Origin: a virus
Length of the DNA stretch: 18,408 nucleotides
Virus record (IMG/VR): IMGVR_UViG_3300045988_016268
Location: 1-18,408 of that record
Strand: one strand, 5' to 3'
Positions 2,222-18,408 of the stretch are shown piece by piece. A program made the translations under genes and the position numbers. Every line of letters starts with the position of its first letter. Position 1 is the first letter of the stretch. The notes beneath the pieces were generated by a model that saw only the letters and a program-made list of their open reading frames with translations, did not search any database and had not been told where the DNA came from.

Positions 2222-3361
2222 TCACTTTCTTATACCTGATTGTTGCAACAAGCCGCCAAGAATCATGCTGAATTCTGCTTTGATTTGCGGTGTTTCAAAA
2301 CGTAATCGTCCGACGCGATAGGCGCTTAATATTTTCTGTGTCATATCGTCGGAGCGTTTGAGCATGATGCAATCATTGTCAACCAGTCGGTAGTCAAACG
2401 TAAAATCACGGGTGATTTTCGGCTGTTTTTTGGTAATGATATATAGTACTTCGTCGGTATCGCTTAATTGTTGGTATACGTTGAAAATACCGTATTCTGT
2501 GGTCCTCAATGTGAAGGCGTAACCGGAGTTGTTGAAACCACTAATGAGGGTATTGGCGTTATCCCTGAAATCATTGTTGATTGCATAATTCGCATAATTT
2601 TCGTCATATTTGCGTAAAAATTGTCCGAACTTGGATGTGGCCACCTTGGCGCTGAACCCACCATAATCGGCCAGTTCCACCATGACGAAGCCATCACAAT
2701 AGCGTTGGTATTGCGTGTGATTATCCAACTGTGGTTTCAAGTTGATATTAAATGCGCTGAAATACGGGTTGGCCAATGTTACCGCGTTGCTGCACATGAT
2801 GACTCGCACTCTATCGTTCCAACGGTCAACCGTATTGTAGAACTCCTCAAGTGCGGTTACTTCACCGCCCAAATACCGCATGTTATCGGGGAAGATTTCA
2901 TCAAAAACAATGGTTCGCACCTTGGGATACGCAACTGATTTGACCTGTCCCGCCTGACTGAGGGCAATGAAGTACCCTATGATGTGCCATGTGGGGCGCG
3001 TCTTGCCGTGCTTGTCCGTGGTGGCGTCCCTGTCATCCAGCCAGTGACATTCAGCTTGATTGCCGGACACGCGAAACTCCAGTTCCGGGTATTGCTCCGC
3101 GATATCGGCAAACCATGTGCCCTTGTTTTTCTGTTCCTCCGCAGTCCTGCGTAGATAGATGAATTGCCAGCGTTTTTTAATCCAGTCGCCTATGACCAGT
3201 TTTTTGGCTCCGTAGGTTTTTCCGAGGCCGCGAGCGCCGATTACGAACATCCAAGGCGCGTGATAGGATAATACGCGCCTATAATCGTAATAATCCCCCT
3301 CTTCTAACAGTTTCTCCATAATACCCATCCTACCATACAGCAGCGACAGGCCGGTGGACAT
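2222..3361 (-). CDS. DNA encapsidation (packaging) ATPase, phi29 gp16-like
   Basis: Walker A is VIGARGLGKTYG and Walker B is RTIVFDEIF. The size of about 370 aa is typical of gp16-family packaging ATPases. Internal ATGs at 3328 and 3319 are possible true starts, and an AGGA lies about 9 nt upstream of 3319. Confidence 0.85.
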   Translation of the reverse strand: MSTGLSLLYGRMGIMEKLLEEGDYYDYRRVLSYHAPWMFVIGARGLGKTYGAKKLVIGDWIKKRWQFIYLRRTAEEQKNKGTWFADIAEQYPELEFRVSGNQAECHWLDDRDATTDKHGKTRPTWHIIGYFIALSQAGQVKSVAYPKVRTIVFDEIFPDNMRYLGGEVTALEEFYNTVDRWNDRVRVIMCSNAVTLANPYFSAFNINLKPQLDNHTQYQRYCDGFVMVELADYGGFSAKVATSKFGQFLRKYDENYANYAINNDFRDNANTLISGFNNSGYAFTLRTTEYGIFNVYQQLSDTDEVLYIITKKQPKITRDFTFDYRLVDNDCIMLKRSDDMTQKILSAYRVGRLRFETPQIKAEFSMILGGLLQQSGIRK

Positions 3362-3380
3362 CTACCGGCCTATCACTGCG

Positions 3381-4595: not shown

Positions 4596-4604
4596 AGTAT
4601 TAGT

Positions 4605-4657: not shown

Positions 4658-4710
4658 TTCCAATACGGTTACACCATACGGTTGCCGTCCGTGGTGGTGT
4701 TACGTTGGTG

Positions 4711-5622
4711 TCAGATTACAAAATAAGAGAGTTGCAGTGTCTGTTTCAGCTGAGTGTTTGTCTTGATTGTTCCCTGACAATAGAAAGATACGACCCCATC
4801 TCCGGTGATACTAATATTGCATGGCCCGGAGTCATTACCATACGTGAACGGATAGGAATTTATAAAGCCGTTCGGTCGATATCCTTCCGGCATTGTCCCG
4901 ATAATGAGTGAGCCGGGGTTCACGTTCGACGTACAGTTAGCGTTGGAGTGCCCGTCTGGCGAACCGAAACGCACCATGATGTTGACGAATTTTGACAGCG
5001 GTGAGTAATATACCGTCCATGATGCGTTAGAAAAATGATTAGTCAGCACGTTAGTTCGCTGAACCAATGCCGTCGCTGATTGTCCCGAGGTTTTCAGGCT
5101 GGTTAATTCTTCCTGTACGTTCGTCGCCGCTGTCGTCGCGTTTGTCGCTTCAGTGTGGATTTGCTGTGCGGTGCCCGAGTATCCGCCCTGCTTGGTAAAC
5201 GTCGTGTCGGCCTGCGCTTTTGTGTACACGTCGGCGGCGTTTGCCTTGCCGTCAACCGTGCCGGACAGCGAGGACACGGTGCCCTGTAATGCCGTCAATG
5301 CGGTGTTTTCGGCCTTGCCGTTAATCGTGGACATAAGTGCTTGCGCGGTTGGCTCTGAGGTCACGCCAAGCGCGGTAAAATATGATTCCTGCGCGGCAAT
5401 ATCACTCTTATTAGTCTGCGCCAATGATAGAGCGTTATCCGCCGTGCTTTTCGCCGTATTGGCGGTACTTGCCGCGGTGGTCGCGTCCGTCGCGTTGCGG
5501 TACATCTGCGAGTCGATTTTACTCATGTCCGCTGTGTAGTCGCCGCGCCATGACGGTTTATCGTCCGGGCTGTCCCCGAACTGGCTGAGATTATAATGAG
5601 GGGTTTTATTGATACTACTCAT
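4711..5622 (-). CDS. Tail fibre / receptor-binding protein 1
   Basis: The N-terminal motif HYNLSQFGDSPDDKPSWRGDYTADMSKIDSQMY is shared with the adjacent gene. An Ala/Thr-rich predicted coiled shaft follows, then a compact C-terminal domain. The RBS is GAGGAA. The gene overlaps the upstream gene by 8 nt. Confidence 0.7.
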   Translation of the reverse strand: MSSINKTPHYNLSQFGDSPDDKPSWRGDYTADMSKIDSQMYRNATDATTAASTANTAKSTADNALSLAQTNKSDIAAQESYFTALGVTSEPTAQALMSTINGKAENTALTALQGTVSSLSGTVDGKANAADVYTKAQADTTFTKQGGYSGTAQQIHTEATNATTAATNVQEELTSLKTSGQSATALVQRTNVLTNHFSNASWTVYYSPLSKFVNIMVRFGSPDGHSNANCTSNVNPGSLIIGTMPEGYRPNGFINSYPFTYGNDSGPCNISITGDGVVSFYCQGTIKTNTQLKQTLQLSYFVI

Positions 5623-6562
5623 GAGAGGATTCCTCGCTTTCAGTATTACGGGTAGGCGTCCCTACCCGAACAATATTATAGTTGTCGGAATATTGTGTGT
5701 CCAGTTGTGTGGCGGTCAATCCCGTAGTGGACGGTACAGATTGCGATAGCGCCTGCTCTAACGCGGATACACGAGCAACGAGAGTATCATATGTATTCAC
5801 TGTTACGTAATTGGCTAAATCTGATATTTTCGCGAATGTTCGCCATGGTGCCCAAGAGTTGTGATAATTACGTCTCATATAGATGTTAGAATCAGAGTCG
5901 TTTGAAAACACTATTTCCAATATAGCAAGAGCCGATACTCTGAGTTTAAAACATATTCCCTCTACGTTTGCATGCGGTTTTGTGCCCTTAGAGCCGTTTG
6001 CTGCATGATATATTTTACCTATTGTTGATTCGTCGATAGAATCGTAATCTAATTGCGATGTCGGCAATGGATTAAAAAATAAACCACCTTGAAAAACTCC
6101 TAATGGACTGCCGCCCGTACCGTCGCCCGCCAGCGTGGCATCATGCGCAACCGCCGTCAATCCGCCCGAGCTGCTGTCACCCACATAGCTAATAGTGACC
6201 TGATTGCCCGACGTTTCGATATTGATACCGCTTCCCGCTTTGATGTCGCCCGCCGTCAACCGGTCGGCTATCGCCGCCGCGAGGGCTTGCGTTACGCTCT
6301 CCGTAGTTGCGTACCCATCGAGACTGGGAATGTCCTCGGTTCGGGCTATCGTATCCGCCACGCCCAAATAGCTATCGGCGGTGCCGTCGCCGGTAAGGTC
6401 GGCGGTATGCTCTACCGTGGTCATGCCGCCCGCCTGTGACGCGGCGTAGATTGCCGAGTCAATCTTGGACATGTCCTCATTGTAATCGCCGGTATAGGTT
6501 GGGCGGTCATCCTCCGTATACTGGGATAATCCGTAGTGCTCGGTGTGGTTGGTGGCGGTCAT
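5615..6562 (-). CDS. Tail fibre / receptor-binding protein 2 (paralogous N-terminus)
   Basis: The true start is taken as ATG 6562 (MTATNHTEHYGLSQYTEDDRPTYTGDYNEDMSKIDSAIY), preceded by AGAGGGG and forming an ATGA overlap with the upstream stop. LxGDGTxxSxLGV fibre repeats occur twice. The C-terminal domain is low in GC. Confidence 0.7.
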   Translation of the reverse strand: MTATNHTEHYGLSQYTEDDRPTYTGDYNEDMSKIDSAIYAASQAGGMTTVEHTADLTGDGTADSYLGVADTIARTEDIPSLDGYATTESVTQALAAAIADRLTAGDIKAGSGINIETSGNQVTISYVGDSSSGGLTAVAHDATLAGDGTGGSPLGVFQGGLFFNPLPTSQLDYDSIDESTIGKIYHAANGSKGTKPHANVEGICFKLRVSALAILEIVFSNDSDSNIYMRRNYHNSWAPWRTFAKISDLANYVTVNTYDTLVARVSALEQALSQSVPSTTGLTATQLDTQYSDNYNIVRVGTPTRNTESEESSHE

Positions 6563-7200
6563 GGTCGCACCCCTCTGTTCTCGAAGTTCGATACGGTCGG
6601 GTTGCGCTGAACATACTTGGCGTCCGCGTCGCCCTCGGTCAGGTAAATGTCTGCCGGTTCGCCCTCGGGGATACTCTTGCCGTAAGGGAACTGCGAACGT
6701 CCCGGAAAATCGCCCGGCACGCAATTGTCTACAGCGGTTGCGCGTAAATCATATTCACGCGCGGACAACCCCAGAGCGTCGTACATAGATGCCTTAAGCT
6801 CCATGTCATCATAATCCCCCCAAAACAGTCCATGATTACGGGCGTTATCGTACATTCCATCAAGAACTGTTTGCAGGGCGTCCTGTCTGCCATATACCGG
6901 CGACCACGCTAAACCTGTGACATGCGACTGTTCAATAAGTCTGATAAGTTCTTCGCGTAGAGCGGCCATCTGCTTGAGCAGATTATCGGCCATATTCTTG
7001 ATGTCCTGATTATTGGCGTCAATCGCTTTGTTCACCGACTCAACCAAGGTGTTGAAGTCGGATTGCAAGGTGTCAAGATTATGGCGTAGGCATTCAATCA
7101 ACTGCAATGTCGTCAGTCCGTCCCGATAGGTGAACGGAACGGACGTGGGCACCCCGTCAAACAGGCGTTGCCGTGGAATCAGCGCGTTAATGGCAACCAT
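6559..7200 (-). CDS. Tail or appendage structural protein with a central coiled coil (function inferred from position)
   Basis: ATG 7200 is preceded by GGGAG, 2 nt after the upstream stop. A heptad-like segment reads LQSDFNTLVESVNKAIDANNQDIKNMADNLLKQMAALREELIRLIEQ. The gene lies between the lower collar and the fibres. Confidence 0.5.
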   Translation of the reverse strand: MVAINALIPRQRLFDGVPTSVPFTYRDGLTTLQLIECLRHNLDTLQSDFNTLVESVNKAIDANNQDIKNMADNLLKQMAALREELIRLIEQSHVTGLAWSPVYGRQDALQTVLDGMYDNARNHGLFWGDYDDMELKASMYDALGLSAREYDLRATAVDNCVPGDFPGRSQFPYGKSIPEGEPADIYLTEGDADAKYVQRNPTVSNFENRGVRP

Positions 7201-7202
7201 GA

Positions 7203-7997
7203 TTACTCCCATTCTCCGTAGTTATGGCAGTTACTGAAAATAGTATCATACGAGCCCCATATCTGCATGAAACACGGTTCGAGACTCCGCACGACTTCCA
7301 TATCCACATTGATAATCGCATTGCGATATTCGGTAATGAGGCTCATTGCAGACTGAGACCGGCCCGACGTGTGGGATGAACTCCTGCCGTCTGTCGCGTC
7401 ATGTTGCCATTCCGTGCTTGACGTGCTATGCGATTGCGACGTGGTGCCTTGCGTGCTATGGCTACTGCCGTCCGTATCCGCTTGCGCCTGATTGGCGTGA
7501 GTCGCATACCGAGCGAAGTCGCCTTGTACACCTGTTGCCGGAACCTCAGAATCATATGACTGGGACTTGGTGCTACTTGAACTAGTGCCGTCCGATATGC
7601 TTTTGGTCGAACTATCCTGAGACGCGCTGGTTTTGCCGCTGGACTGGGCTACCGTGTTGGATGTGTTTTCACTGGTCATTTCCACGGTGTTCAGCGGGTC
7701 GTATTTCAATGCTAGCGTCCGATAACGCTCATTAAAATACGGCATGATTTCCGCCATCGTCATCCCCAAATAGAAGATGAATTGTTGCGCGGTTTCCTGT
7801 CCTATCTCCCTAAGCGCGTAATGACGAACGATTTTCCCGTTCAATTCGGCACGATGGTTCTCATCGTAAATCGGGTAATAGTCGGCGCTGAGATGCAGTT
7901 TGGCGTCCGTGTCGTAGCCCAATGCAATGAGGTTGCCGAGGGTCTCAGTATACTCCCCCGGCGTTGCCATTGCATAGGCGCTAAAATCCTGTGCCAC
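7203..7997 (-). CDS. Lower collar protein (phi29 gp11 position) with a Ser/Thr-rich internal region
   Basis: GTG start at 7997 is preceded by GGAGGTG and shares 1 nt with the portal stop. The gene lies directly downstream of the portal, and its size (264 aa) is close to gp11. The call rests mainly on synteny. Confidence 0.55.
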   Translation of the reverse strand: MAQDFSAYAMATPGEYTETLGNLIALGYDTDAKLHLSADYYPIYDENHRAELNGKIVRHYALREIGQETAQQFIFYLGMTMAEIMPYFNERYRTLALKYDPLNTVEMTSENTSNTVAQSSGKTSASQDSSTKSISDGTSSSSTKSQSYDSEVPATGVQGDFARYATHANQAQADTDGSSHSTQGTTSQSHSTSSTEWQHDATDGRSSSHTSGRSQSAMSLITEYRNAIINVDMEVVRSLEPCFMQIWGSYDTIFSNCHNYGEWE

Positions 7998-8947
7998 TAT
8001 AATACACCTCCGATACCTGCATCATACGAGGCGGGCATATCGATATCAGTCGTACCACTGGCGCTGGAATCCAGCGCGTTAGGTACGCCGGAGCTTTGCG
8101 CGTCCGCATACTCAACCCAGACATTAAGAGATGGCCACAAACGGTTTATTTGGGTTGCCGCCTCCTGCCGCGCCTTGAGAAAACTCAGGCGGAACACGTC
8201 CGTTTTCTCATTGGCCTGCGCCACCTCATCCGATATGAGCCGTTCCTTTTTCTCGGTGCCGCTGGACTGGATGCCCAGATACCCCAGTACCTCGTTGGTC
8301 ACTTGCGTTTTCTGCTGGATGAACTTGTCCAACAGGTACGGGGTGGTGTTGGGCCACGGCTGGAACATGCTACCGGGGTCAAGCGAATCATAGCCGACGA
8401 TATAGTCCTGCCCGTCCTGCCGCTGTTGTAGCATGTTCTGCACGGTCAGCTTGGTACGCGGGTCGGCGGTGATAATGGTCGGAAGCTTCAGACTCTCCAA
8501 GTTCACATCATACGCCTTATCAATATCGGCAAGACGCCGTGCATACTGCCATAGAATATCCTTGAAACTCATGCGCATACGATTATCCCAAATGGGGATG
8601 CACTCCCGGCCCGCCTTGAGTTGCTTGTAATGATAGTTGACTCCGACCGGCTCGAATGAGGTGGGGTTATTATACACGTTCAGCCGGCCTTGATATCCGG
8701 CCTGCGTGGCGAGGAACCTGCCGATACGTTTGTCCTCGAAAAACAACGCGCAACCGTATTCACACAGACACATTTCCAACCATCGTTCATCAACGGTGGG
8801 CGGCAGTCCCCGCCAGCTGAACCGGTTCAACGCCAGTTCCTCCAGCAAATGATAGTACATTGCATCAAGGTCGGCGGCGCGCGCCTTCGCGTAGTTGCCA
8901 CGCGGATGCAACGCGCCCCCGACCCGATTTCTTTTAGACCTGCTCAT
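7997..8947 (-). CDS. Portal / upper collar connector protein (phi29 gp10 family)
   Basis: 316 aa. The N-terminus is basic. [33 protein letters not shown] parallels phi29 gp10 [54 protein letters not shown] parallels [21 protein letters not shown] (phi29 sequence recalled from memory). Confidence 0.88.
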   Translation of the reverse strand: [316 protein letters not shown]

Positions 8948-8959
8948 ACTACCATCATA

Positions 8960-11212
8960 TCACTCATAACTGATGCCCGGCAGTGGATCATTGTCCGCCA
9001 AATCGGTCATTCCGATATCATCAGGACTGTTCCATACGGTAGCCCCAGACTCGAACACGCCCTTGATGGTCTGCCGATACTGCTCGGGCAAATCACCTCG
9101 CACATAGCATTCTTGCATTTGCCAATATGAGAACTTGGTCATACATTCCAGCGATTGCGGCGGCGTGATGAAACGCTGGACAAAATACCCGTAGCGTAAC
9201 ATGTACTCTCCGACGCTACGCAGAGCTGAGGGTGCGCACGTCTTGAATCGAACCAACACCCCGACAATGCCGTTTGCAAGATTGAATCCGTCTCCGCCGA
9301 TAGCACCGGACGTGGTAGGGGGCGTCAACTGCATTTGCTGGACTTGCGCATTAATCCCGGCGATAGTGTTTTGGTAGTCGCCAAACGCGGAACGTTGCGC
9401 GTAATCCGCGTTCATATCCGCCATATTTTGGGCCAACTGGTTTGAAAGCGCTGTAGTCTGAGAGCCATACGTGTTGGCTTGACTTGTTGTGGCCGCGTTA
9501 GTACTCAGTGAATTGGCAGTGGAAAGTTGGGCGGCGGTATTGTTGATACTGCGGTTCGCTTCGGTGTTTACACCATTCATGACAGCACCGCCTAATGCCG
9601 ATACCGCGCCCCCGACATTACCTGAAGCGGCGTTACCCGCCACCCCGACCACGCCGTTAACCACGTTATTCAGCTGTGCGAGGTCGGCTCGCTGATTGTT
9701 GATATACGTCGTGTTGTCCAGTCCGGTGTTAAGAGCTGTCGCTTGAATTGCGTTATTGGCGTTGCGGTTGCCGATAGCGAGTTTGTTGGCTTGGGTATTG
9801 TACTGGTTTTGCATGGCCGTGGCCGCAAGCGATTGACTAATGCCCATCTGCGCTTTTTGATATGTCCAGTCAGCTGACTGCTGATTATAGGCGCGAGTGT
9901 AGGCACTGTTTGCCATTGCCAACTGAGCACCATTGTTGACTATCACAAATTGAGGGAAATTGCTGATACCAAACGCGGCGTCCAACATTTCTCCGTTATC
10001 AATGGGCAACCCATTGTTTTTATCAAGAGGAGCAATCTCGCTTGCGCCCGCCTTATTGTACCCAACCGGGTAAAAGTTCAAGCGCGCGCCATTGGGTGCG
10101 TAATTATGCACCTCTCTAATAACCAGATTATCGCTTTGGATATTTTCGGGCTTATAGGTGATATTTGTACCGTTCAAGCAAGTGCATTCGACAGTGGAAT
10201 AGGGGTAGCATTTGAGTTTTTTAAGGTTTTTATAACGTTTAGGGATATTAAAATTATCACGAAAATCATTAATGGTAATAATGTCTTCATATCTGCTGGG
10301 CGCATTTGTGGCCGACTGGGGGAAACGGTAGATACGATCATTTAATTCCGGGGGGAGTGTTCTCCCAAATAGCTTATCTACGACATAGCCAGATTGCTTA
10401 AGAAAGTCATCGTCTAAAGAGGGTATCATATACATGTTTACAATACCCTGTGTTATCCATGAAAAAGTAGAGCCAACACCCATAAACACTCGGATAGACT
10501 GGATGTCCTTAAAGTACAGTATTTCAGCACCATTGGCCATGTTCTCAAACAGAGAGCCGCCCGCAGTAGTGAGAGACGGTTTTTCCTGACTGCCCGCGTC
10601 CGCTGACAAATCTACCGTGCTCACGACTATTACGCCGTAATTCAGATTTTTCCCGTCCATGCTGATAAGAGACTTGTACTGTTGGTTTACCGTCACCATT
10701 TCGCTACCGGTGTCCAGCCCTTCGGGTAGTGCGAGATAACTGCGGCCATAGTCGGTCATCTGGTTTTCGTTGGCAATGCCGATATGGCCTCGCACCACAT
10801 AACATGAGCCGAACCTAAGCACATGCTGGAATGACTGCCAAACGTCCAACTGCACGGTGAGCTGAGTAGTGTATGCATTGATGTAATCCACGTGGTTGAT
10901 AAAGTAATACCAATATCGCGGCGACTCCAAGTCGGGATAATCGTTATACACCACGACATAGTTGTAGTTGGACGCCTCGTTGAATGGCAGTTCGACGCGC
11001 ACGGGTTGCCCGAACATGTGCATGACTCCATGTACCCTGTCAACACCGGGCTGTCGGGCAAACCATTCCTGTTGTTTCTGCGGTGACTCGAACCGGGCTA
11101 GGTCACGGTAACTGCTATCCCACGGCACGTTACAGAGTTTCAACGACGTGTTTGGCGTCCATTGCGCCCAGTTAAACGTCGCCTCGACGTTAGGGTTGAT
11201 ATCTCTCAGCAT
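8960..11212 (-). CDS. Tail knob / distal tail tube protein (phi29 gp9 family), enlarged to 750 aa
   Basis: The N-terminal region (CNVPWDSSYRD...QQEWF...YWYYFINHVDYINAYTTQLTVQLDVWQSF) parallels phi29 gp9 (DVPFSNDYKNT...NWF...KWFYAFVTELEF...EIDVLQTW). The gene lies between the capsid and portal genes as in phi29. It contains an Asn/Gln/Ala/Thr-rich region with a Gly/Ala/Val hydrophobic loop. Confidence 0.8.
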   Translation of the reverse strand: MLRDINPNVEATFNWAQWTPNTSLKLCNVPWDSSYRDLARFESPQKQQEWFARQPGVDRVHGVMHMFGQPVRVELPFNEASNYNYVVVYNDYPDLESPRYWYYFINHVDYINAYTTQLTVQLDVWQSFQHVLRFGSCYVVRGHIGIANENQMTDYGRSYLALPEGLDTGSEMVTVNQQYKSLISMDGKNLNYGVIVVSTVDLSADAGSQEKPSLTTAGGSLFENMANGAEILYFKDIQSIRVFMGVGSTFSWITQGIVNMYMIPSLDDDFLKQSGYVVDKLFGRTLPPELNDRIYRFPQSATNAPSRYEDIITINDFRDNFNIPKRYKNLKKLKCYPYSTVECTCLNGTNITYKPENIQSDNLVIREVHNYAPNGARLNFYPVGYNKAGASEIAPLDKNNGLPIDNGEMLDAAFGISNFPQFVIVNNGAQLAMANSAYTRAYNQQSADWTYQKAQMGISQSLAATAMQNQYNTQANKLAIGNRNANNAIQATALNTGLDNTTYINNQRADLAQLNNVVNGVVGVAGNAASGNVGGAVSALGGAVMNGVNTEANRSINNTAAQLSTANSLSTNAATTSQANTYGSQTTALSNQLAQNMADMNADYAQRSAFGDYQNTIAGINAQVQQMQLTPPTTSGAIGGDGFNLANGIVGVLVRFKTCAPSALRSVGEYMLRYGYFVQRFITPPQSLECMTKFSYWQMQECYVRGDLPEQYRQTIKGVFESGATVWNSPDDIGMTDLADNDPLPGISYE

Positions 11213-11233
11213 ATTATCCCTTTCACAAAAAAT

Positions 11234-11265
11234 AAGGGGAGTGTTTCACGTGAAACACTCCCCTT
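11234..11265 (-). terminator. Intrinsic terminator after the major capsid gene. It is a 32-bp perfect palindrome whose tip is copy 2 of GTTTCACGTGAAAC.
   Basis: aaggggagtgtttcac pairs with gtgaaacactcccctt and every pair from 11234 to 11265 was checked. On the minus strand it is followed by attttttgtgaaa. It lies 8 nt after the capsid stop at 11273. Confidence 0.85.
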
Positions 11266-11272
11266 TATTATA

Positions 11273-13003
11273 TCATGCGGTCACGGTCACGCTCTTCTTG
11301 CCGGATACGCCGAACAATGTGGCGGTGATGTCGGACGAGCCTTGCTTGACGCCCGTCACAAGGCCCGACTCGGACACCGTGGCGTTGCCCGGGGTACCGG
11401 ACGTCCATGCGGCCTGCATGGTAACGTCGGCGGTTCGCCCGTCAATCATGGTCGCCTTAGCGGTCGCCTGCGCCGTATGGCCAACGGTCGTGCTCGGGAC
11501 GGTTACGGCAATGGATGCGATAATCGACGGGTTGAATCCGATGACACCATCACCGACCACCGGCACGTTCAGGGCGGCGGACACGGTGCCCGGCACCTCA
11601 GGTGTCGCCGGATTCGTATACAGCGCGGTTGCGGTAACCGGGATAGTGGTGTTCGGTTCGTCGAGTCCGACCACCAGTACGCCGGTGGGCGAAATATAGG
11701 TGTAATCGCTCTTCGACTTAACGGTGTCACCGATAGCGTACTCAACCGCGTCCGAACGGAACGTGGCCGTGCCATCATTACTGATAGTCGTATCGGCGGT
11801 GACCTGCACAGCGCCGCCACGCGCCACATCCTTCGGCGTAGTCGCGCCACCGCCATACATGGCAAGCTTGAGTTGGAAGGTCGGCGTCTCGGCCACCGTA
11901 CCGCTCGGAGCCACCACGTTGGCGGTGGAACCCGCGCCCGTCCAGAACATCACGGCCGGGGCGAAACCAGACACCGAAATAATGTGCTGGACGTGCAGAT
12001 AATGGTTGACCGAGTTGATGTTCACCGGGTTCGTCTGCTGGGTCATCTCGTTAATGACAGGAATGTCAATCAGGAACTTGTCAGTAGTAAGAATGGCTTG
12101 CACGCCATCCATACCGAAACGGTCCTGCGGAATGACGATAATCCGGTCGATGGTCGGTTCCGCGTCCGTACGCTGGAACACCGTGGCGAGGCCCTGCACG
12201 TCAAGCGCAGACTTGACTTCAGGCGAACAGAATAGTACGAGTTCGTCGGGGCGGGCGAACGTCGGCATGTGACGCGCATTGTATCGGGTGGAAACGAATT
12301 TCAGCGTGTCGGCCCATGCGCGAATCTGGCGCAACATGTCGCGCGCGTCCGTTTCCGTCGAACCCATGTCGTTAAGGTCATGCTCCATGTGGACACGCCA
12401 ATATCCGCCGAGCTTCGCATACTCGACAAACTGGTGGCACATAGCCTCGAACAAGTCAACCTCGGCCGCATTATAGCAGGAGGTGAGAATCTGCGAGGTG
12501 AGCGAGGCCAGACCGGTTTCGGAGGTGAACGCACGTTGGAGTGTTTTATCCTCCGTGGTAGCAGGGTAGAAGTGGGTAAAGTCAAGACGGTGGTAGAGGC
12601 TATCCACGTCGATTTTCCATTTGCGGAAATTGTCCGCGCCCAAGTATTCCGCGTCCGGGTCGTACACCTGTGCGAGCGGCATACCTACGGCGATTTCCTG
12701 CCACGTGTCGCCATACGCCTGAGATGCGCGCTGGAAAACACTCAGCGGGTTGTTCCAACGCCACGTGTTCACGTAAGTACCGCCGATACGGTTCACCAAG
12801 GCCGAGTAAAACTCGTTCTTAAGCTGGGTGCTGGACATGAGGGTGGCCATCTGGCGGTCCATGTTCATCTGAGTGGCCGAAGGCATACGCCTCTGATACT
12901 CGGGAGATGCCTCATTGCGAATCATGTTGAGAATCTGGGCGTTATTGAACTCGGTGAGCGGTCGCAACTGCTGCTTCGGCGTCGCCACTGGAGTGGTTGA
13001 CAT
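11273..13003 (-). CDS. Major capsid protein (phi29 gp8-like) with C-terminal Ig-like Big_2 domain(s)
   Basis: 576 aa. A strong AGGAAGGA RBS precedes the start. The gene lies directly after the scaffold gene and before a strong terminator. The C-terminal IASIAVTVPSTTVGHTAQATAKATMIDGRTADVTMQAAWTSGTPGNATVSESGLVTGVKQGSSDITATLFGVSGKKSVTVTA is a typical Big_2 fold signature, as in phi29 gp8. Confidence 0.85.
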   Translation of the reverse strand: MSTTPVATPKQQLRPLTEFNNAQILNMIRNEASPEYQRRMPSATQMNMDRQMATLMSSTQLKNEFYSALVNRIGGTYVNTWRWNNPLSVFQRASQAYGDTWQEIAVGMPLAQVYDPDAEYLGADNFRKWKIDVDSLYHRLDFTHFYPATTEDKTLQRAFTSETGLASLTSQILTSCYNAAEVDLFEAMCHQFVEYAKLGGYWRVHMEHDLNDMGSTETDARDMLRQIRAWADTLKFVSTRYNARHMPTFARPDELVLFCSPEVKSALDVQGLATVFQRTDAEPTIDRIIVIPQDRFGMDGVQAILTTDKFLIDIPVINEMTQQTNPVNINSVNHYLHVQHIISVSGFAPAVMFWTGAGSTANVVAPSGTVAETPTFQLKLAMYGGGATTPKDVARGGAVQVTADTTISNDGTATFRSDAVEYAIGDTVKSKSDYTYISPTGVLVVGLDEPNTTIPVTATALYTNPATPEVPGTVSAALNVPVVGDGVIGFNPSIIASIAVTVPSTTVGHTAQATAKATMIDGRTADVTMQAAWTSGTPGNATVSESGLVTGVKQGSSDITATLFGVSGKKSVTVTA

Positions 13004-13026
13004 GATGAGAAAATCCTTCCTAATTA

Positions 13027-13368
13027 TTAGTCTTCAAACAAATCATCGAATGTACTGTAGGTGCCGTTGTAGTCATCGTCGGTCATTTCCGTGGCATTCG
13101 GTTCTTCGTCGCCGTTCGGCCCATCGTTCAGCACGCGGTCGGCGGCGGCGTCGCGCATCTCTTCAATGGTTTTGGAGAGTTCGGCCACGGTCGCCTCCAA
13201 GGCGCTGAGACGGTTGGCCATGTCGGCGTCCTTGTCGTCGCCCGCGTCTTCCGGTTCGCCGTCATCCTGCGTTTCAGGCTCCGGGTTCGGCGTATTGTCG
13301 TCGGCGGTCGTGTCCGGCTCGGTGTCGGGCGTGGTGTCCGGCTTATCGTCGGTTTCGGTGTCGTCCAT
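13027..13368 (-). CDS. Putative scaffolding protein (phi29 gp7 position), extremely acidic
   Basis: 113 aa. The RBS is AAGAGG. A central helical segment reads ANRLSALEATVAELSKTIEEMRDAAADRV, and both tails are Asp/Glu/Thr/Pro-rich. The gene lies immediately upstream of the capsid gene. Function is assigned by position and composition only. Confidence 0.55.
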   Translation of the reverse strand: MDDTETDDKPDTTPDTEPDTTADDNTPNPEPETQDDGEPEDAGDDKDADMANRLSALEATVAELSKTIEEMRDAAADRVLNDGPNGDEEPNATEMTDDDYNGTYSTFDDLFED

Positions 13369-13388
13369 AATTACCTCTTAAAGTAAGT

Positions 13389-13416
13389 GGCATGACGGCA
13401 ATCACGCCGTCATGCC
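13389..13416 (-). promoter_or_regulatory. Perfect 11-bp stem hairpin between the polymerase and scaffold genes
   Basis: ggcatgacggc (13389..13399) pairs with gccgtcatgcc (13406..13416) around the loop aatcac. On the minus strand it ends about 20 nt before the scaffold ATG and is followed by acttacttt, a weak U-tract. It could be a terminator, an attenuator or the 3' end of a small RNA. Confidence 0.55.
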
Positions 13417-13554
13417 GGTTTGCTAGGCTGTGCGGGTTCCCTCGCCGTCGCTGGGCGTTGGCTACGCACGTCTACATCCGACCGAATCGCCTTACCGACT
13501 TGCCTCACGGTCGGGCCATCGAATCGACTTGGGACGCACACCCCGCTACCGACT

Positions 13555-13563
13555 ATTATAGCA
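13555..13563 (-). promoter_or_regulatory. Extended -10 promoter element TGCTATAAT overlapping the polymerase stop codon (candidate late promoter)
   Basis: The minus strand reads tatgcTATAATagtcgg, a perfect TATAAT with TGn immediately upstream. ATGACG is a weak -35 candidate 15 nt upstream. The predicted start is near 13548. Confidence 0.4.
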
Positions 13564-15016
13564 TAAAAGTGTGGCCGTCATCATTGATATGGCGTGAACC
13601 GGGTATAAACTCATCATAGGGGATGGGGGCGGCTCGATGCACGCCACTCAGACGCATTACCGTGTCGCCATTCGTTTCCACCCCGCAATATTTGCGATTG
13701 CCTAGGATGCGGAGCTTCTCGTAGGTATGGTCGTTTTTCCACTCTCCTAGTTTCCGGTCATCTGTTTCCATGTCTTCGGGCGCGTCCAATCCTTCCAATA
13801 TCATGCCATCGGTATCGGCGTAGAGCACGCGGTCGGCGTTCGCGTTCATCGCACGGGATAGTATCCGCCGTCCATAGGCGTTGACATATGCGGCGGTCGG
13901 CAACCATGCCAGACTGTTGGCCGACTCGGGTTTGTCCACGGTAAAATCCACACCACCATCCACGGACGGTTTTGGATGCAACATGGGCCGGTAGAGCGAG
14001 GCCCCGAACTTTCCCACCAGCGAGTTCAATAACAGTTTCGCCATCTGTTTGCGCTCCCCCGTCGCGGTCTGTTTCACGTGAAACCATTTGTCCACATACG
14101 TATAATAAAGTTCGTGTGATTTGCGGAACTTCCAGCCGCCGACATGCTCCCACATGTGGACGTCATAGTTTTCGGTCAGCGTTTCCCAATCCACGTCCGC
14201 GACTGGCATAGTAACGACGCCGAGCGTGCTATCCAAGCGTTCACCCTCATACCCCCATACAGGTAGGATATTGGTGAGTGTCGCCGTTTTGCCCGCTTTC
14301 AACCTTGCATCAAACGTGATGACGTCGATATGCAGCGGATAATCAGCATCATAACGATACTTCCCGTCATACCACACGGGGGCACCTACCGGCATGGGGG
14401 CATCGCGCATGATACTTGGGTAGAGACTGTTCACATCCCAGCTTCGGCAATCCCGGTATTCGCCCGACTTACTGTATACTATCGCTCCATAGTACGCGGG
14501 GCGCATCCGATGATAATCATCCCTATCCAATGACGGAAAATGGCGTTTGAATTCGGCGTAATCGCCATCAATGTAGTCGGTCATCGCCATTGATGCTATG
14601 GTCGTGCCCCTGAGGTTCAGGGCGGCGCATTCCTGTGCGATATTCCACGTGGTTTCCAAATCATCCACACCGCCAAATGTTTCACGTGAAACATTCAAAC
14701 CATCGTCGCGCGTGACATTGCGCACGTCCAGAAAATCCACGGTGATGCCGCCCATGCGCACGCGAAAACTGTAAAAATGCCCGCGAATGTTGAACGTGCC
14801 CCATACACCGTCTTTGCTTGGGTTCGGTTGTAATGGGAGTCGTTTCAACAGTTCGGCGGCTATGGGCTTGATATCCTGCCACCCGTGAGCACACCATACG
14901 CGCGTATGATAATCGAGCATGGTGAGACGGATGACGGCGTTCACCGTCAACGGTTCCGTGCCGTCATCCGTCAATAGTGTTGCGCCGTCCGTTGCCGCAG
15001 TTCGACGCTCTTTCAT
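13556..15016 (-). CDS. Protein-primed family-B DNA polymerase (phi29 gp2 type)
   Basis: Motif A is WDVNSLYPS, motif B is KLLLNSLVGKF, motif C is VLYADTDG and KxY is GNRKYCG. The TPR1-like segment YDGKYRYDADYPLHIDVITFDARLKAG parallels phi29 FEGKYVWDEDYPLHIQHIRCEFELKEG. The start is taken as ATG 15016 (MKERR), preceded by AAGGATGGAG, 14 nt after the upstream stop. The ORF track start at 15058 would overlap the upstream gene by 28 nt. Confidence 0.93.
   Translation of the reverse strand: MKERRTAATDGATLLTDDGTEPLTVNAVIRLTMLDYHTRVWCAHGWQDIKPIAAELLKRLPLQPNPSKDGVWGTFNIRGHFYSFRVRMGGITVDFLDVRNVTRDDGLNVSRETFGGVDDLETTWNIAQECAALNLRGTTIASMAMTDYIDGDYAEFKRHFPSLDRDDYHRMRPAYYGAIVYSKSGEYRDCRSWDVNSLYPSIMRDAPMPVGAPVWYDGKYRYDADYPLHIDVITFDARLKAGKTATLTNILPVWGYEGERLDSTLGVVTMPVADVDWETLTENYDVHMWEHVGGWKFRKSHELYYTYVDKWFHVKQTATGERKQMAKLLLNSLVGKFGASLYRPMLHPKPSVDGGVDFTVDKPESANSLAWLPTAAYVNAYGRRILSRAMNANADRVLYADTDGMILEGLDAPEDMETDDRKLGEWKNDHTYEKLRILGNRKYCGVETNGDTVMRLSGVHRAAPIPYDEFIPGSRHINDDGHTFML
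14071..14084. repeat. Copy 3 of the GTTTCACGTGAAAC palindrome, inside the polymerase gene
   Basis: Exact 14-mer. On the coding strand it is read as tgg ttt cac gtg aaa cag (W F H V K Q). Confidence 0.95.
14676..14695. repeat. Copy 4 of the palindrome, extended to 20 bp (AATGTTTCACGTGAAACATT), inside the polymerase gene
   Basis: Exact 20-bp palindrome. On the coding strand it is read as aat gtt tca cgt gaa aca ttt (N V S R E T F), a different frame from copy 3. Confidence 0.95.
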
Positions 15017-15030
15017 GACTCCATCCTTTT

Positions 15031-15975
15031 TTAGTGTCGTGCCGCGTTGGCCATCCATTCATCAAGTCGTGTTTCTACATCGCCTGCATCCGCCTTGGTT
15101 TCCCATTTATGTGTTTTATCATTATACCACGCGGCTTCCCGCACAACGGTGCTGAAATTCGTGTTGTTTATCAGCCATCGTTTTTGACGGTTCGACAGGG
15201 ATGCGAATTTTTGGGCTATGCTGTAATCGAATGCCTCAAGCCGTTGCGAGACCCTATCAAAATCCGAACCCCCCCCGCCTCCGGAAATCTGTCTAGTGCC
15301 TGCCTGCAATGGCGCTCGACCTACAAGCCCGGCGTATTCAAGCAACTCTCGTTCAAGTTTCCTTCTACCCCCTTCTCGTATCATTATGCGCGCGTGGCTT
15401 ATGCCGCGCTCCGAGCCGAACACGTTCGCACGGTTGCGTGTGAGTTCGTCGCGCGCCGAACCGCCGACCGTGTGAGTGCCCAACACGTCAAAGGGGGATT
15501 CTCCGGCGCGTTCCATTTCACGGATTTCGCCCACCGTGTAGCTGGCCATGCTCAACGCCTCGAATTGTTGGGCGCGTTTGATTTTCCGCCGTGCCTCGAT
15601 GCGGCGGCGCTGTTGCTGTCGCAACGTCTTCCGACGTTTCGGCGGGGCGGCGGCGATTTCCGCGTCGGTAATCAGCGGACGCGCCGCCATTTCACGGTCA
15701 AATTTCGTAATATGGACGTCGGGCACGACCTGATACGGCTCGCTGTCCCGCGCCCTTAAGGCTTGCTGTTGTTCCCCGAATTCCTGTCCGATACGGCGGG
15801 CAACCTGTTCGAGTTGTTGGGCGCTGAGTTTTCCGAGAAACGTTTCGGTGATTTGCTTGGGGAGATGTCCGGTGCTGTAATCTCTGACCGCTTGCTCTCG
15901 GCGTACCTGTGCCGACCTGATGGCGGCATTACGTTTCAGGCTGTTAACACGTCGATTGTTTTTACGTTTTGCCAC
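15031..15975 (-). CDS. Putative terminal protein (replication primer), assigned by position and composition
   Basis: 314 aa with a GTG start preceded by AAGGAACGAGGG. The N-terminus MAKRKNNRRVNSLKRNAAIRSAQVRR and internal stretches (PPKRRKTLRQQQRRRIEARRKIKR) are very basic. The gene lies immediately upstream of the polymerase and is translationally adjacent to it, as in phi29 (gp3-gp2), in a genome with long ITRs. I found no recognisable sequence similarity. Confidence 0.55.
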   Translation of the reverse strand: MAKRKNNRRVNSLKRNAAIRSAQVRREQAVRDYSTGHLPKQITETFLGKLSAQQLEQVARRIGQEFGEQQQALRARDSEPYQVVPDVHITKFDREMAARPLITDAEIAAAPPKRRKTLRQQQRRRIEARRKIKRAQQFEALSMASYTVGEIREMERAGESPFDVLGTHTVGGSARDELTRNRANVFGSERGISHARIMIREGGRRKLERELLEYAGLVGRAPLQAGTRQISGGGGGSDFDRVSQRLEAFDYSIAQKFASLSNRQKRWLINNTNFSTVVREAAWYNDKTHKWETKADAGDVETRLDEWMANAARH

Positions 15976-16001
15976 GGCCCTCGTTCCTTGTGAGTATAAA
16001 A

Positions 16002-16039
16002 CACCCCTCGCCGCAAGGATGGGAAAACGGCGAGGGGTG
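16002..16039 (-). terminator. Hairpin plus U-tract (terminator or attenuator) upstream of the terminal-protein and polymerase operon
   Basis: cacccctcgccg (16002..16013) pairs with cggcgaggggtg (16028..16039), a 12-bp perfect stem with a 14-nt loop. On the minus strand it is followed by ttttatact. Confidence 0.55.
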
Positions 16040-16054
16040 AGTCTGGCGGCAACA

Positions 16055-16066
16055 TCCCTATAGGGA
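16055..16066. repeat. 12-bp perfect palindrome TCCCTATAGGGA in the intergenic region
   Basis: Read directly. It lies between the stop at 16102 and the hairpin at 16002..16039 and is a possible operator. Confidence 0.7.
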
Positions 16067-16101
16067 CATTGTCATGTTATCATATGGTATAGACAAATAT
16101 T

Positions 16102-16539
16102 CTATCCACGGTCTTTTTCCGACACCAGTTCAAGGTCGAAGAACTTGAATCCACGGCGACTCTTCTTTTCCACCACCTTGAGGGCAAGAGGATGATTCCA
16201 CGTATCCGGCGTTCCGAAAATCGCGAACAGGTTGCCAAAAGCGTGCGCCAATGTGGGCGAGGCGGCGGCAAAGTCACCCTCCTCCGCATGGATAACGACA
16301 CGGGTAGATGAGTTGATTTCACCGGTCTCTTGGTTGGCTACCTCGATGGCCTGCGCAAGCACGTTGGTCACATGAAGTGGCTCATTGAGGTGTTCATCAA
16401 CCTTATCGGCGGTCTGCATAGCGTTGTACAGCGCCATTTTGCCGTCCATGGTGTCAGTGTTGAAGAAGTGGGATACGGCGTTAGCGCCGTTAGCCGCAAA
16501 ATTGTTGCCGTTTGCTACGGTCAGTTCGTTGTCAGCCAT
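16102..16539 (-). CDS. Hypothetical early protein (possible ssDNA-binding protein by position upstream of the terminal protein and polymerase)
   Basis: 145 aa with a strong AAGGAAAGG RBS. The C-terminal pattern VVIHAEEGDFAAASPT...FAIFGTPDTWNHPLALKVVEKKSRRGFKFFDLELV is reminiscent of small phage OB-fold SSBs, but I cannot verify this. Confidence 0.6.
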   Translation of the reverse strand: MADNELTVANGNNFAANGANAVSHFFNTDTMDGKMALYNAMQTADKVDEHLNEPLHVTNVLAQAIEVANQETGEINSSTRVVIHAEEGDFAAASPTLAHAFGNLFAIFGTPDTWNHPLALKVVEKKSRRGFKFFDLELVSEKDRG

Positions 16540-16569
16540 GTGTGTTGCCTTTCCTTATAGGGTTAGTAA

Positions 16570-16881
16570 TTATTTTTCCTCGGAGATGATATCATCTTCA
16601 ACCACGTTGCCGTTAACCGACCCCGGATAGTCGATAATGGTATCATCTCCAAACTCACAATTAGCCCAATAGATTGCCTCATCCATGCGCGTAGCCTGCG
16701 CATGGTATTCGGCGGACATAGGAAGCATGTCCCTGTTAATCTTGCGGGCTTTTTTCATTGCCATGTCAGCCGTGCGGCATGCGCCATCCACGACTACTTC
16801 GGTGTCCACGAGTTCCCCGTTTTCACTGCGCGTAACGCCGCGCACGATACTATAGTGCTTGGCTCGCTTAATATATGCCAT
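16570..16881 (-). CDS. Hypothetical early protein with an acidic C-terminal tail
   Basis: 103 aa with an AAGGTGG RBS 9 nt upstream of ATG 16881. The C-terminus is VVEDDIISEEK. No recognisable domain. Confidence 0.6.
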   Translation of the reverse strand: MAYIKRAKHYSIVRGVTRSENGELVDTEVVVDGACRTADMAMKKARKINRDMLPMSAEYHAQATRMDEAIYWANCEFGDDTIIDYPGSVNGNVVEDDIISEEK

Positions 16882-16898
16882 AATTATGCCACCTTATT

Positions 16899-17408
16899 TC
16901 AATATTGCTGCTGTTGTGACATTCTTGCAATGTCTTCATCAGTATACTGTACATCGGTTAGATTGTCAAAACAGAGACACGCAATTTTGATGATAGTCTG
17001 AGCGAACCCATCACCCTCCCACGTCTGGCACATCTCATAGCAAGTCGCGCCCTTGACATGACAGACCGCGCACCACGCCACCATCGCCGGACAGTAAATA
17101 AGCCCGGACAACATTTCAATGTCCTGCATTCGTACTAATGCAGCGTACATCGACGAACTTGGCGAGATGCTTAGACAAATGTTCGCCGCGTGTTCGATAC
17201 TGTCGGCAAACGCCACCTGACCCCCCTGAGGCTTGTAAAAGTCCTTAAGCAGCGTTACAGTGCGACAAAACGTCTCCCAGTCGCCCTCACCACGATTGTA
17301 TTCCCGCAAGTGTAGATTACGCCGACGGCCACGAATGACACGGCGCACACGGTCATCATCCAAAACACCGTCATCAAACCAATTCGTACGGTCATCATTG
17401 CTCTTCAT
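16899..17408 (-). CDS. Hypothetical early protein (Cys-rich C-terminal half)
   Basis: ATG 17408 (MKSNDD) is preceded by GGAGAGG. The track start at 17417 is a GTG without a better RBS. No recognisable domain. Confidence 0.6.
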   Translation of the reverse strand: MKSNDDRTNWFDDGVLDDDRVRRVIRGRRRNLHLREYNRGEGDWETFCRTVTLLKDFYKPQGGQVAFADSIEHAANICLSISPSSSMYAALVRMQDIEMLSGLIYCPAMVAWCAVCHVKGATCYEMCQTWEGDGFAQTIIKIACLCFDNLTDVQYTDEDIARMSQQQQY

Positions 17409-17410
17409 AG

Positions 17411-17662
17411 TCAACACCTCTCCAACAACAACGTATCAGCCAACGCCCTCGCGTCAACCAGCATATGAGCCACCTGCGCGTAATCACACGCATCAAACGC
17501 CACAGCCGACCAAACCAAACGACGCCTACCGCCAGACTGAGACCGCATTAATACCGTATATCGTAGTTCATATATCCGATTATGAGGACAATACACCAGC
17601 CGCACATCACCAAACTCAAACTTGGACGGAAACACGGCCACAACCTCATCACTCACCATCAT
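17411..17662 (-). CDS. Hypothetical early protein
   Basis: ATG 17662 shares 1 nt with the upstream TGA (TGATG). GAAGGTG lies upstream. The track start at 17665 is a TTG. No recognisable domain. Confidence 0.55.
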   Translation of the reverse strand: MMVSDEVVAVFPSKFEFGDVRLVYCPHNRIYELRYTVLMRSQSGGRRRLVWSAVAFDACDYAQVAHMLVDARALADTLLLERC

Positions 17663-17913
17663 CAAACACCTTCTTCTTCCTCGAACGGCAAACGCACTTC
17701 AACAACACCGTACAAAGTCCCCTGAAGGTCAAAACGGGAAGAAGCAAAACCAACATACACATCAAACCCATAAAACGCATGACGTACAACATCACGCACG
17801 CCATCCAACGCCTCCTTAACCGTATCCGCCGGATACGGGCCATACTTATACACATACGCGGTCGTAAGCTCAAACACCGTAAAATCATCAGGCGTAACAG
17901 TAAAATACCACAT
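17662..17913 (-). CDS. Hypothetical early protein
   Basis: 83 aa. ATG 17913 is preceded by AAGGAGAG. No recognisable domain. Confidence 0.6.
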   Translation of the reverse strand: MWYFTVTPDDFTVFELTTAYVYKYGPYPADTVKEALDGVRDVVRHAFYGFDVYVGFASSRFDLQGTLYGVVEVRLPFEEEEGV

Positions 17914-17936
17914 TATCTCTCCTTATATCGATTCTT

Positions 17937-18128
17937 TCAAACAGTAAACTCTTCACCATACTCAGCATAATGCGCAATCAAATACGCATTAAAAAAATCC
18001 TGTTCAGAACAAGGAGCAAGAGCCACATGCAAGCCCTCACGAATATCATCATCCATAAGAGCCACAGCACTGTCATAATCGACCTCACGCCCATCCCAAT
18101 TAATAACCTTACTCATCTCAACTACCAT
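17937..18128 (-). CDS. Hypothetical small acidic early protein whose start codon lies inside ITR-R
   Basis: Translation is MVVEMSKVINWDGREVDYDSAVALMDDDIREGLHVALAPCSEQDFFNAYLIAHYAEYGEEFTV. It shares the ITR-encoded RBS and MVVEM with the gene at 281..478. The alternative ATG is at 18116. The protein is strongly acidic. Confidence 0.6.
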   Translation of the reverse strand: MVVEMSKVINWDGREVDYDSAVALMDDDIREGLHVALAPCSEQDFFNAYLIAHYAEYGEEFTV

Positions 18129-18408
18129 CCTTTCTACATTCCTTGGTTGATAATTAATATAATACACCACCACAAAACACAACACGCCGAACAACACAAA
18201 AAACGATAAAAAACAACGAGATAAAAAACGCAGACAAAACAACAAGCAGAAACGACAATAAAAAAGCCAGCAAAACACAAGAAGAACCAGAGACGGGGCA
18301 AAAAAACACAACAGAAACGACAACAAAAAAACACAGAACAGAGAGCGACAGCAACACACACAACAGAGCAGTTATGGAAAAAAGCTAGCTGCTGGGACCC
18401 CTCCCCTG
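18113..18408. repeat. Right inverted terminal repeat (ITR-R), 296 bp
   Basis: Exact reverse complement of 1..296. The window ends ...gctagctgctgggacccctcccctg, which is the reverse complement of the first bases caggggaggggtcccagcagctagc. Confidence 0.97.
18153..18194 (-). promoter_or_regulatory. Mirror copy of the putative ITR promoter, facing inward from the right end
   Basis: Identical sequence to 215..256 by ITR symmetry. It lies upstream of the minus-strand gene that starts at 18128/18116. Confidence 0.3.

Follow-up and report, generated by a model that had tools for sequence, protein, structure and literature searches.

What is encoded in the 187-nt gap that separates the DNA polymerase gene from the scaffold-like gene in the IMG/VR virus record IMGVR_UViG_3300045988_016268? 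The stretch analysed here, called the window below, covers positions 1 to 18408 of that record and represents the complete linear genome, 18.4 kb, of a small phi29-like gut phage. A previous sequence-only reading had proposed that the gap gives rise to a packaging RNA (pRNA)-like molecule of ~130-165 nt, with its own extended −10 promoter and at a position new for such an RNA, and this proposal is supported by the fold, by the covariation of the helices and by the complementarity of two loops. We are highly confident that the interval specifies a functional structured RNA. It probably encodes the prohead or packaging RNA of a phi29-like phage whose host is probably Bifidobacterium, and the comparisons of related sequences suggest that this RNA is most likely a divergent, unannotated lineage of the phi29 packaging RNA. 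Every feature that the earlier reading had named was found at its place; its statement that the gap is the longest gene-free stretch did not hold, since by gene calls based on open reading frames (ORFs) a longer one of 231 nt lies at 17418..17648. The 187-nt gap is the only strongly conserved non-coding stretch of the window.

Read on the minus strand, the RNA from the predicted transcription start (+1) to just before the 3′ hairpin (~125 nt) folds as a pRNA-type domain I, in both minimum free energy (MFE) and RNAalifold predictions. A long and bulged helix A closes a three-way junction, from which the first arm is built of helix C, a 5′-side bulge, helix E and a 6-nt loop, and the second arm is a short D hairpin. 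The elements of the locus are as follows, in the order of transcription apart from the full-length transcript in the second line.

13555..13563, minus strand: extended −10 promoter TGCTATAAT, overlapping the polymerase stop codon TAA (13558-13556)
13380..13549, minus strand: predicted pRNA-like transcript of ~160-170 nt, its ends placed from the sequence
13516..13546, minus strand: 5′ strand of helix A, bulged, ~25 bp in total (MFE and RNAalifold)
13508..13514, minus strand: 5′ strand of helix C, CCGACCG
13501..13507, minus strand: CE-type 5′-side bulge UGAGGCA, in which GGC (13504-13502) is the proposed kissing sequence
13485..13500, minus strand: helix E (AGUCG/CGAUU) with the 6-nt E loop GUAAGG (13495-13490)
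13478..13484, minus strand: 3′ strand of helix C, CGGUCGG, running directly from helix E with no 3′ bulge
13468..13477, minus strand: junction strand AUGUAGACGU between helices C and D
13455..13467, minus strand: D hairpin GCGU-AGCCA-ACGC, in which GCC (13462-13460) is complementary to GGC of the CE-type bulge
13422..13454, minus strand: 3′ strand of helix A, including a 3-nt ACC bulge
13389..13416, minus strand: 3′ hairpin of 11-12 bp with the conserved loop GUGAUU (13405-13400), domain-II-like and terminator-like
13366..13388, minus strand: U-rich tail ACUUACUUU, ribosome-binding site (RBS) AAGAGG (13379-13374) and scaffold ATG (13368-13366)

The 7-bp stem that had been noticed from the letters, CCGACCG (13514..13508) with CGGTCGG (13484..13478), is thus helix C. 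The junction strand at 13468..13477 varies at one base only among the sequences of clade 1, to which the window belongs, and the E loops of other clades read UUGAGU, UUGAAU, UUAGGU and UUAAGU. A single topology parser, applied to the phi29 pRNA and to representatives of five clades (clades 1, 2, 5, 6 and 8), gave the following dimensions, with the junction lengths in the order A/C, C/D and D/A.

phi29: helix A 24 bp; junctions 1/3/0; helix C 9 bp; bulge 9 nt; helix E 4 bp; E loop UUGAGU; helix D 6 bp; D loop 5 nt
Window (clade 1): helix A 25-28 bp; junctions 1/10/0; helix C 7 bp; bulge 7 nt; helix E 5 bp; E loop GUAAGG; helix D 4 bp; D loop 5 nt
L168 (clade 5): helix A 24 bp; junctions 0/7/0; helix C 9 bp; bulge 6 nt; helix E 4 bp; E loop UUGAGU; helix D 5 bp; D loop 4 nt
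Clade 6: helix A 27 bp; junctions 2/4/0; helix C 9 bp; bulge 7 nt; helix E 4 bp; E loop 7 nt; helix D 6 bp; D loop 5 nt
Clade 8: helix A 28 bp; junctions 1/9/0; helix C 8 bp; bulge 6 nt; helix E 4 bp; E loop 6 nt; helix D 4 bp; D loop 5 nt

The pRNA topology lies within 1 kcal/mol of the MFE structure in all five clade representatives (5/5), compared with 1/600 dinucleotide-preserving shuffles. The whole interval is more stable than its shuffles (z = −3.8); thermodynamic stability by itself is weak evidence.

We take the complementarity between the CE-type bulge and the D loop, as judged from the aligned sequences, to be the decisive feature. The phi29 ring is held together by pairing between the CE bulge AACC of each pRNA and the D loop GGUU of its neighbour (PMC5066667). 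In the present phages, the equivalent two elements are Watson–Crick complementary in every clade with assignable loops, the sequence differing by clade, as listed with the chance of such a match between random loops of equal lengths.

Clade 1 (window): bulge GGC, D loop GCC; chance 0.19
Clade 8: bulge UGGCA, D loop UGCCA; chance 0.002
Clade 2: bulge GACUA, D loop UAGUC; chance 0.004 (in L163, GACUG and UGGUC)
Clade 5: bulge GUCA, D loop UGAC; chance 0.012
Clade 6: bulge (G/A)CCA, D loop UGG(C/U), i.e., RCCA/UGGY; chance 0.028

The pairing segment always occupies the 3′ end of the bulge, as does AACC in phi29. The one variable pair of clade 6 is GC in 27 sequences, GU in 6 and AU in 4, with no mismatches (0), and in the ~130 sequences of clade 1 both GGC and GCC are invariant, the adjacent bases of bulge and loop being variable. 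The complementary loop pair that the sequence-only reading had proposed to look for is therefore present, with clade-specific sequences.

The helices covary as well. In clades 1 and 8 taken together, 94% of the alignment cells are paired, versus 28-42% with slid partners, 21 of the 53 pairs show compensatory changes, and the covariation score is 0.32 versus at most 0.086 for the slid controls. Nine pairs of helix A carry compensatory double changes between these two clades, and in helix C (alignment A5) all cells (100%) are paired and 4 of the 7 pairs are compensatory. Within clade 6, 89.6% of the cells are paired, versus 36-48% for slid controls, and in its D helix every cell is paired (100%) and 4 of the 6 pairs are compensatory. 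The 3′ hairpin adds seven pairs with compensatory changes inside clade 1. Conserved structure and covariation among relatives, the other check that had been suggested, thus came out in favour of the RNA, with the pRNA domain-I topology in five divergent clades.

The gap is retained by all 80 relatives whose polymerases are 86-92% identical to that of the window; in their alignment the coding flanks are variable at many positions and the gap consists of long invariant runs. Among 56 near-complete relatives, 50-nt segments over 13548-13419 are 0.95-0.965 identical, the highest values in the genome, against an aligned mean of 0.85. One-nucleotide insertions or deletions are tolerated at the boundary between the CE bulge and helix E and in the 3′ strand of helix E, so the conservation does not come from coding. 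A coding function of the gap was rejected on these indels, and the longest minus-strand ORF found by eye has 4 codons.

The contigs that encode polymerase homologues of as little as 36% identity all keep the gene order polymerase, a gap of 170-230 nt, scaffold-like gene and capsid gene, and all of them carry GTGCTATAAT or GTGCTATGAT across the polymerase stop codon. The box at the polymerase end is common to all divergent clades and to the Bifidobacterium phage isolates. The isolates BP1, BD811P2, BadAargau2 and BadAztec1 have the same gap, box and RNA, and the gap is unannotated in all four GenBank records. A scan of metagenomes returned mostly members of clades 1 and 6, together with the new clade 8 and no clade-3 members; no further members of clade 2 or clade 5 were found among viral contigs. 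In the Bifidobacterium phages BadAargau2 and BadAztec1 from honeybee gut (L259 2740-2918 and L260 2833-3010), the promoter, an E hairpin with the loop UUAAGU and the 3′ hairpin are kept, the loop of the latter being UGAAAG, not GUGAUU. A distant gut relative, L256, whose polymerase is 32% identical, has a TGCTATAAT box and a fold of pRNA topology at 11813-12028, between its polymerase and gp16 ATPase genes. In this fold, helix A has 26 bp, the junctions are 0/3/0 with UUU, and the bulge AUCC stands opposite a D loop GGAU; the modelled L256 fold comes from a single sequence and its pRNA-like nature is tentative.

Where would the RNA begin and end? In 79 relatives, T78, G79, T81, A82, T83, A85 and T86 of the −10 box are invariant and the next 7 nt vary, and invariance resumes at A13547 in the alignment, which matches the transcript start predicted from the TGnTATAAT box. 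The +1 would accordingly lie at about 13549-13547 and the 3′ end past the hairpin, at about 13389-13380; the distance from the predicted +1 to the hairpin end is ~160 nt, phi29-type pRNAs being discrete transcripts of ~120-174 nt with a promoter of their own and a 3′ domain II. The degenerate box TGNTATRAT occurs 5 times in the window, all on the coding (minus) strand (8954-8962, 11267-11275, 12470-12478, 13555-13563 and 15121-15129), versus 1.2 expected. Two of these boxes coincide exactly with the capsid/tail and tail/connector junctions and are suggestive of late promoters inside the operon.

The domain-I fold is followed by the hairpin that had already been recognized as a perfect 11-bp stem (GGCATGACGGC/GCCGTCATGCC, 13416..13389), with the loop GUGAUU at 13405..13400 and ~20 nt upstream of the ATG at 13368. 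Its stems are wholly different between clades, and the loop (C)GUGAUU(G) is kept. In the window it stands ~10 nt upstream of the scaffold RBS, with no second promoter-like box between the RNA and the scaffold gene, unlike in clade 6. In that clade (80 metagenomic loci, BP1 and BD811P2), AUUUUAUUUU (a U-run) comes after the hairpin, and a second TGATATAAT box and then a short leader lead up to the scaffold gene. The clade 6 RNA is a self-contained unit of promoter, RNA and terminator (~168 nt) and, given its terminator and the second promoter, is not part of the scaffold mRNA. The lack of a second promoter in the window's clade means that the same promoter probably also feeds the scaffold and capsid mRNA by read-through, and suggests that the RNA of that clade also serves as the leader of this mRNA. 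The plainer possibility raised by the sequence-only reading, a late promoter with a structured 5′ untranslated region, is therefore probably also true for the window's clade and does not extend to clade 6. We note that the hexamer GUGAUU is also the spacer between the Shine–Dalgarno sequence and the scaffold ATG in most relatives (AAGAGGUGAUUAUG). With a 16S rRNA 3′ end that we take to be AUCAC, this scaffold spacer would belong to an extended Shine–Dalgarno sequence.

The following pathway would unite these elements. Host RNA polymerase would start ~7 nt past the TGCTATAAT box that overlaps the polymerase stop codon, the first ~125 nt would fold as pRNA-type domain I, and the stable GUGAUU hairpin would form after it. 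If phi29 is a guide, GGC in the bulge of each molecule would pair with GCC in the D loop of its neighbour, a ring of RNAs would assemble on the connector while the prohead is empty, and the protruding A helices would dock the gp16-type ATPase, which would pump the genome with its linked terminal protein into the head. In the window's clade, the same promoter would also supply scaffold and capsid mRNA by read-through, and free RNA may arise by partial termination or processing at the GUGAUU hairpin. Conservation, fold, covariation, loop complementarity and the layout of promoter and terminator are seen in the sequences, from which the transcript ends, the ring, its binding to the prohead and the probable role in packaging are inferred. 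The presumed protein partner of the RNA is the gp16-type ATPase of the window, and the basic N-terminus of its connector is the presumed docking site.

A number of observations weigh against an assignment to the packaging RNAs. The pairing of the window's own clade is just 3 bp (chance ~0.19) and, GGC and GCC being invariant, there is no covariation of the two loops inside that clade; three clades (L171, L166 and the Badaztec phages), represented by 1-2 sequences each, could be assigned no convincing D loop or kissing pair. The covariation counts given above rest on few independent lineages and are not probabilities, and domain I alone (z = −1.5) is not significantly more stable than its shuffles. 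The RNA lies in mid-genome (13549-13380 of 18408), in the gap between polymerase and scaffold, whereas the phi29 gene is at the left genome end and is transcribed together with the early genes; the genome ends of the window were considered as a site for a pRNA and set aside, being a 296-bp inverted terminal repeat (ITR) with little conservation among relatives. In phi29-type pRNA, a CCA-type bulge of 3 nt in helix A contacts the ATPase. Helix A here has its 3-nt bulge (ACC; AAC or ACC in clade 2) on the 3′ strand, whereas the C18C19A20 bulge of phi29 is on the 5′ strand (PMC5066667). The Rfam pRNA model RF00044, which gives the phi29 control 145 bits, matched neither the whole window nor the isolated 261-nt interval at E <= 10, nor the short inputs of L168 and L256, and nothing in 7 related loci reached its gathering score. 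A covariance model (R1) built from 37 clade-6 RNAs detects the isolates BP1 and BD811P2 at E of ~1e-32 to 1e-36 and has no significant match in other clades, with the filters off included; for the window, L168 and L259, it aligns over its full length with the right gap, at only 9-11 bits (window 10.6 bits, E = 1.7). With model scores this low, homology between the clades, and to the Bacillus pRNAs, rests on architecture and synteny. Permissive Rfam runs on the window, the interval and two related loci returned no ribozyme or riboswitch family.

The same observations leave room for other explanations, of which the least improbable is a cis-acting 5′ leader of the late operon, concerned only with read-through, mRNA stability or translation control and with no role in the packaging motor. 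The window's clade has neither a canonical U-tract terminator nor a separate late promoter, and its sequence alone is compatible with such a pure leader role; in the window and most clades the hairpin stands 10-20 nt before the scaffold RBS with no promoter-like box between, it heads the window's list of terminator-like structures, and the succession of promoter, ~160-nt RNA, hairpin and late genes resembles the arrangement of lambda PR′, 6S and tR′. The absence of an Rfam pRNA match also speaks for a leader. We nevertheless consider a leader alone unlikely: the clade 6 RNA, with its own terminator and with a TGATATAAT promoter of its own for scaffold, lies outside the scaffold mRNA and still conserves the fold, and a leader would leave unexplained both the clade-specific complementarity of bulge and loop in the pRNA arrangement and the highest conservation in the genome. 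Still less probable, in our judgement, is a trans-acting small RNA with another function, such as host takeover, anti-defence or regulation of replication, in which bulge and loop would pair within one molecule as a pseudoknot. That the RNA is conserved, structured and driven by its own promoter would suit it, the sequence cannot separate inter- from intramolecular pairing of the loops, and the link to the Bacillus pRNAs is not significant by model. However, the RNA agrees with pRNA in how its elements are ordered, in having the bulge on the same side and the 3′ strand unbroken, in the sizes of helices and loops, in a D/A junction of zero length and in a pairing segment at the 3′ end of the bulge, the topology is as rare in shuffles as stated above, and one clade has the E loop of phi29, UUGAGU. 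The genomes also encode both of the proteins that pRNA bridges in phi29, and Rfam and the survey of strongly conserved non-coding stretches returned no alternative pRNA candidate in the window, as the earlier reading had held.

An element acting at the level of DNA (protein-binding repeats, a cruciform, or a replication or packaging signal), or an RNA from the plus strand, is very improbable. Short direct and inverted repeats and the extreme conservation could be read that way, and the repeats themselves are real, an 8-mer and two 7-mers occurring twice each. However, by our own estimate ~1 repeated 7-mer is expected by chance in 187 nt, the repeats are of chance size and are not kept as repeats in relatives, and one AGTCGGTA copy sits in the non-conserved spacer between the −10 box and +1. 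Many conserved G–U pairs are compatible only with an RNA of the minus strand, as they become A–C mismatches in the complement or in a cruciform; the plus strand folds like its shuffles (z = −0.07), and it was on these two grounds that a plus-strand RNA and a DNA cruciform were rejected. The conservation begins at the +1 of the minus-strand promoter. Phi29-type protein-primed genomes replicate from their ends, which argues against an internal replication signal. A packaging RNA thus remains the reading that we favour.

The genomic setting is that of phi29. The window carries a perfect ITR of 296 bp, in which bases 1-296 are the exact reverse complement of 18113-18408, and this marks it as a complete linear genome. 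Nearly all of its genes are on the minus strand, in the same order as in phi29.

Early part of the phi29 gene order: small early genes and a phi29-type single-stranded DNA-binding protein
15031-15975: ORF of 314 aa overlapping the DNA polymerase gene upstream, without a Pfam or PHROG match; its position alone makes it a terminal-protein candidate
13556-15058, minus strand: family-B DNA polymerase of the protein-primed type (PF03175-type)
Between the polymerase and scaffold genes: the gap under study, 187 nt
ATG at 13368-13366, minus strand: acidic scaffold-like gene of 113 aa
3′ of the scaffold-like gene: phi29-type major capsid protein with an Ig domain
After the capsid gene: tail, connector and lower collar, then tail and lysis genes
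7997..8947, minus strand: phi29-type connector with the basic N-terminus MSRSKRNR (Pfam PF05352, 150.8 bits)
2222..3361, minus strand: gp16-type packaging ATPase (Pfam PF05894, 151.6 bits; PHROG terminase)
Grouped with the ATPase at the end of the gene order: holin and endolysin

The DNA polymerase of the window is short (486-500 aa). Directly 3′ of the capsid gene, a perfect 14-bp hairpin followed by a T-run (11234-11265) is likely a terminator or attenuator between the capsid and tail genes. The tail-fibre or receptor-binding region (~4600-6600) and the terminal ~1 kb at each end are barely conserved in 56 otherwise close relatives; the tail-fibre region and the genome ends are mosaic or hypervariable modules. 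The window has no tRNA or tmRNA gene, and these two were rejected as readings of the gap RNA; a relative with 75% polymerase identity (L161) has a tRNA gene at 820-891 (Rfam, 61 bits).

The nearest cultured phages, BP1, BD811P1-3 and the Badaztec phages, infect Bifidobacterium and have polymerases of 33-36% identity, and one close homologue is labelled as from a metagenome-assembled genome of Bifidobacterium breve. A scan of species-representative genomes found no copy of the gap RNA region; the host assignment is drawn from these isolates and from the B. breve label, which make Bifidobacterium the probable host.

If the RNA does act in packaging, the RNA of such motors would be much older or more widespread than thought, and pRNA would be placed in a new host group, the phages of Actinobacteria, and at a new genomic position. 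It would offer a second and very different system, with BP1 and BD811P1-3 in culture, for asking why such motors need RNA, as well as new GC-rich three-way junctions and kissing-loop pairs for RNA nanotechnology, and it would be the first pRNA with a second role as leader of the capsid-gene mRNA. It would also fill an annotation gap, the RNA being unannotated in four GenBank phage records and missed by the Rfam pRNA model. A broader view, which we put forward as a possibility that falls somewhat short of even chances, is that RNA-dependent packaging is an ancestral and widespread trait of podoviruses with gp16-type ATPases, including abundant Bifidobacterium phages of the human gut and possibly phages of Firmicutes (L256), with the pRNA fused to the front of the scaffold and capsid mRNA under one promoter for both and released by termination or processing at the GUGAUU hairpin.

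How does this locus compare with known systems? According to reviews, only phi29 and related Bacillus phages have a pRNA (PMC5066667, PMC11476376). A 2025 search based on Infernal and structure added 12 further pRNAs, the named ones from Bacillus phages, and its text mentions neither Bifidobacterium nor metagenomes (PMC12670572). The literature searched held no report of a pRNA in Bifidobacterium phages or in other phages outside Bacillus.

In bacteriophage lambda, the PR′-6S-tR′ unit places a promoter, a short structured RNA, a strong hairpin and the late genes in that arrangement. Like this unit and HK022 put, the present locus has a constitutive-looking promoter, a structured RNA and a strong hairpin immediately upstream of late structural genes, and the window's clade, like lambda, would need read-through for the expression of scaffold and capsid. 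No Q-like or N-like factor or site was identified here, and none was searched for. Unlike in the lambda and HK022 systems, a terminator and another promoter separate the RNA of clade 6 physically from the late operon, and the RNA of the window is far more conserved than a typical leader and has a pRNA architecture with covarying kissing loops.

The closest known system is the pRNA of the phi29 family (RF00044; phi29, PZA, M2/Nf, B103, SF5, GA-1 and newer Salasmaviridae). In contrast to that family, the likely hosts here are Actinobacteria (Bifidobacterium) rather than Bacillus, the ITR of the window (296 bp) is far longer than the 6 bp of phi29, and the RNA of the window is GC-rich. The C/D junction has 4-10 nt in these clades versus UUU in phi29, the 3′ domain consists of one hairpin whose GUGAUU loop is conserved, and the RNA of most clades appears to share a transcript with the late capsid genes. 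What the two have in common is a small protein-primed podovirus that carries a gp16-type ATPase and a phi29-type connector, and an RNA of ~160-170 nt (by prediction in the present phages) that starts ~7 nt past a TGCTATAAT extended −10 box, the phi29 pRNA promoter A1 also reading TATGCTATAAT. In both, domain I consists of a bulged helix A, a three-way junction, an arm of helix C, 5′-side bulge, helix E and 6-nt loop, and a short D hairpin that is stacked directly on helix A (junction length 0), and the 3′ strand of helices C and E is unbroken by any 3′ bulge. The E loop of clade 5 (L168), UUGAGU, is identical to that of phi29, and a 3′ hairpin domain follows domain I in both systems. Bulge and D loop show a complementarity of 3-5 bp in these phages as in the phi29 family, with a pairing segment that covaries from lineage to lineage.

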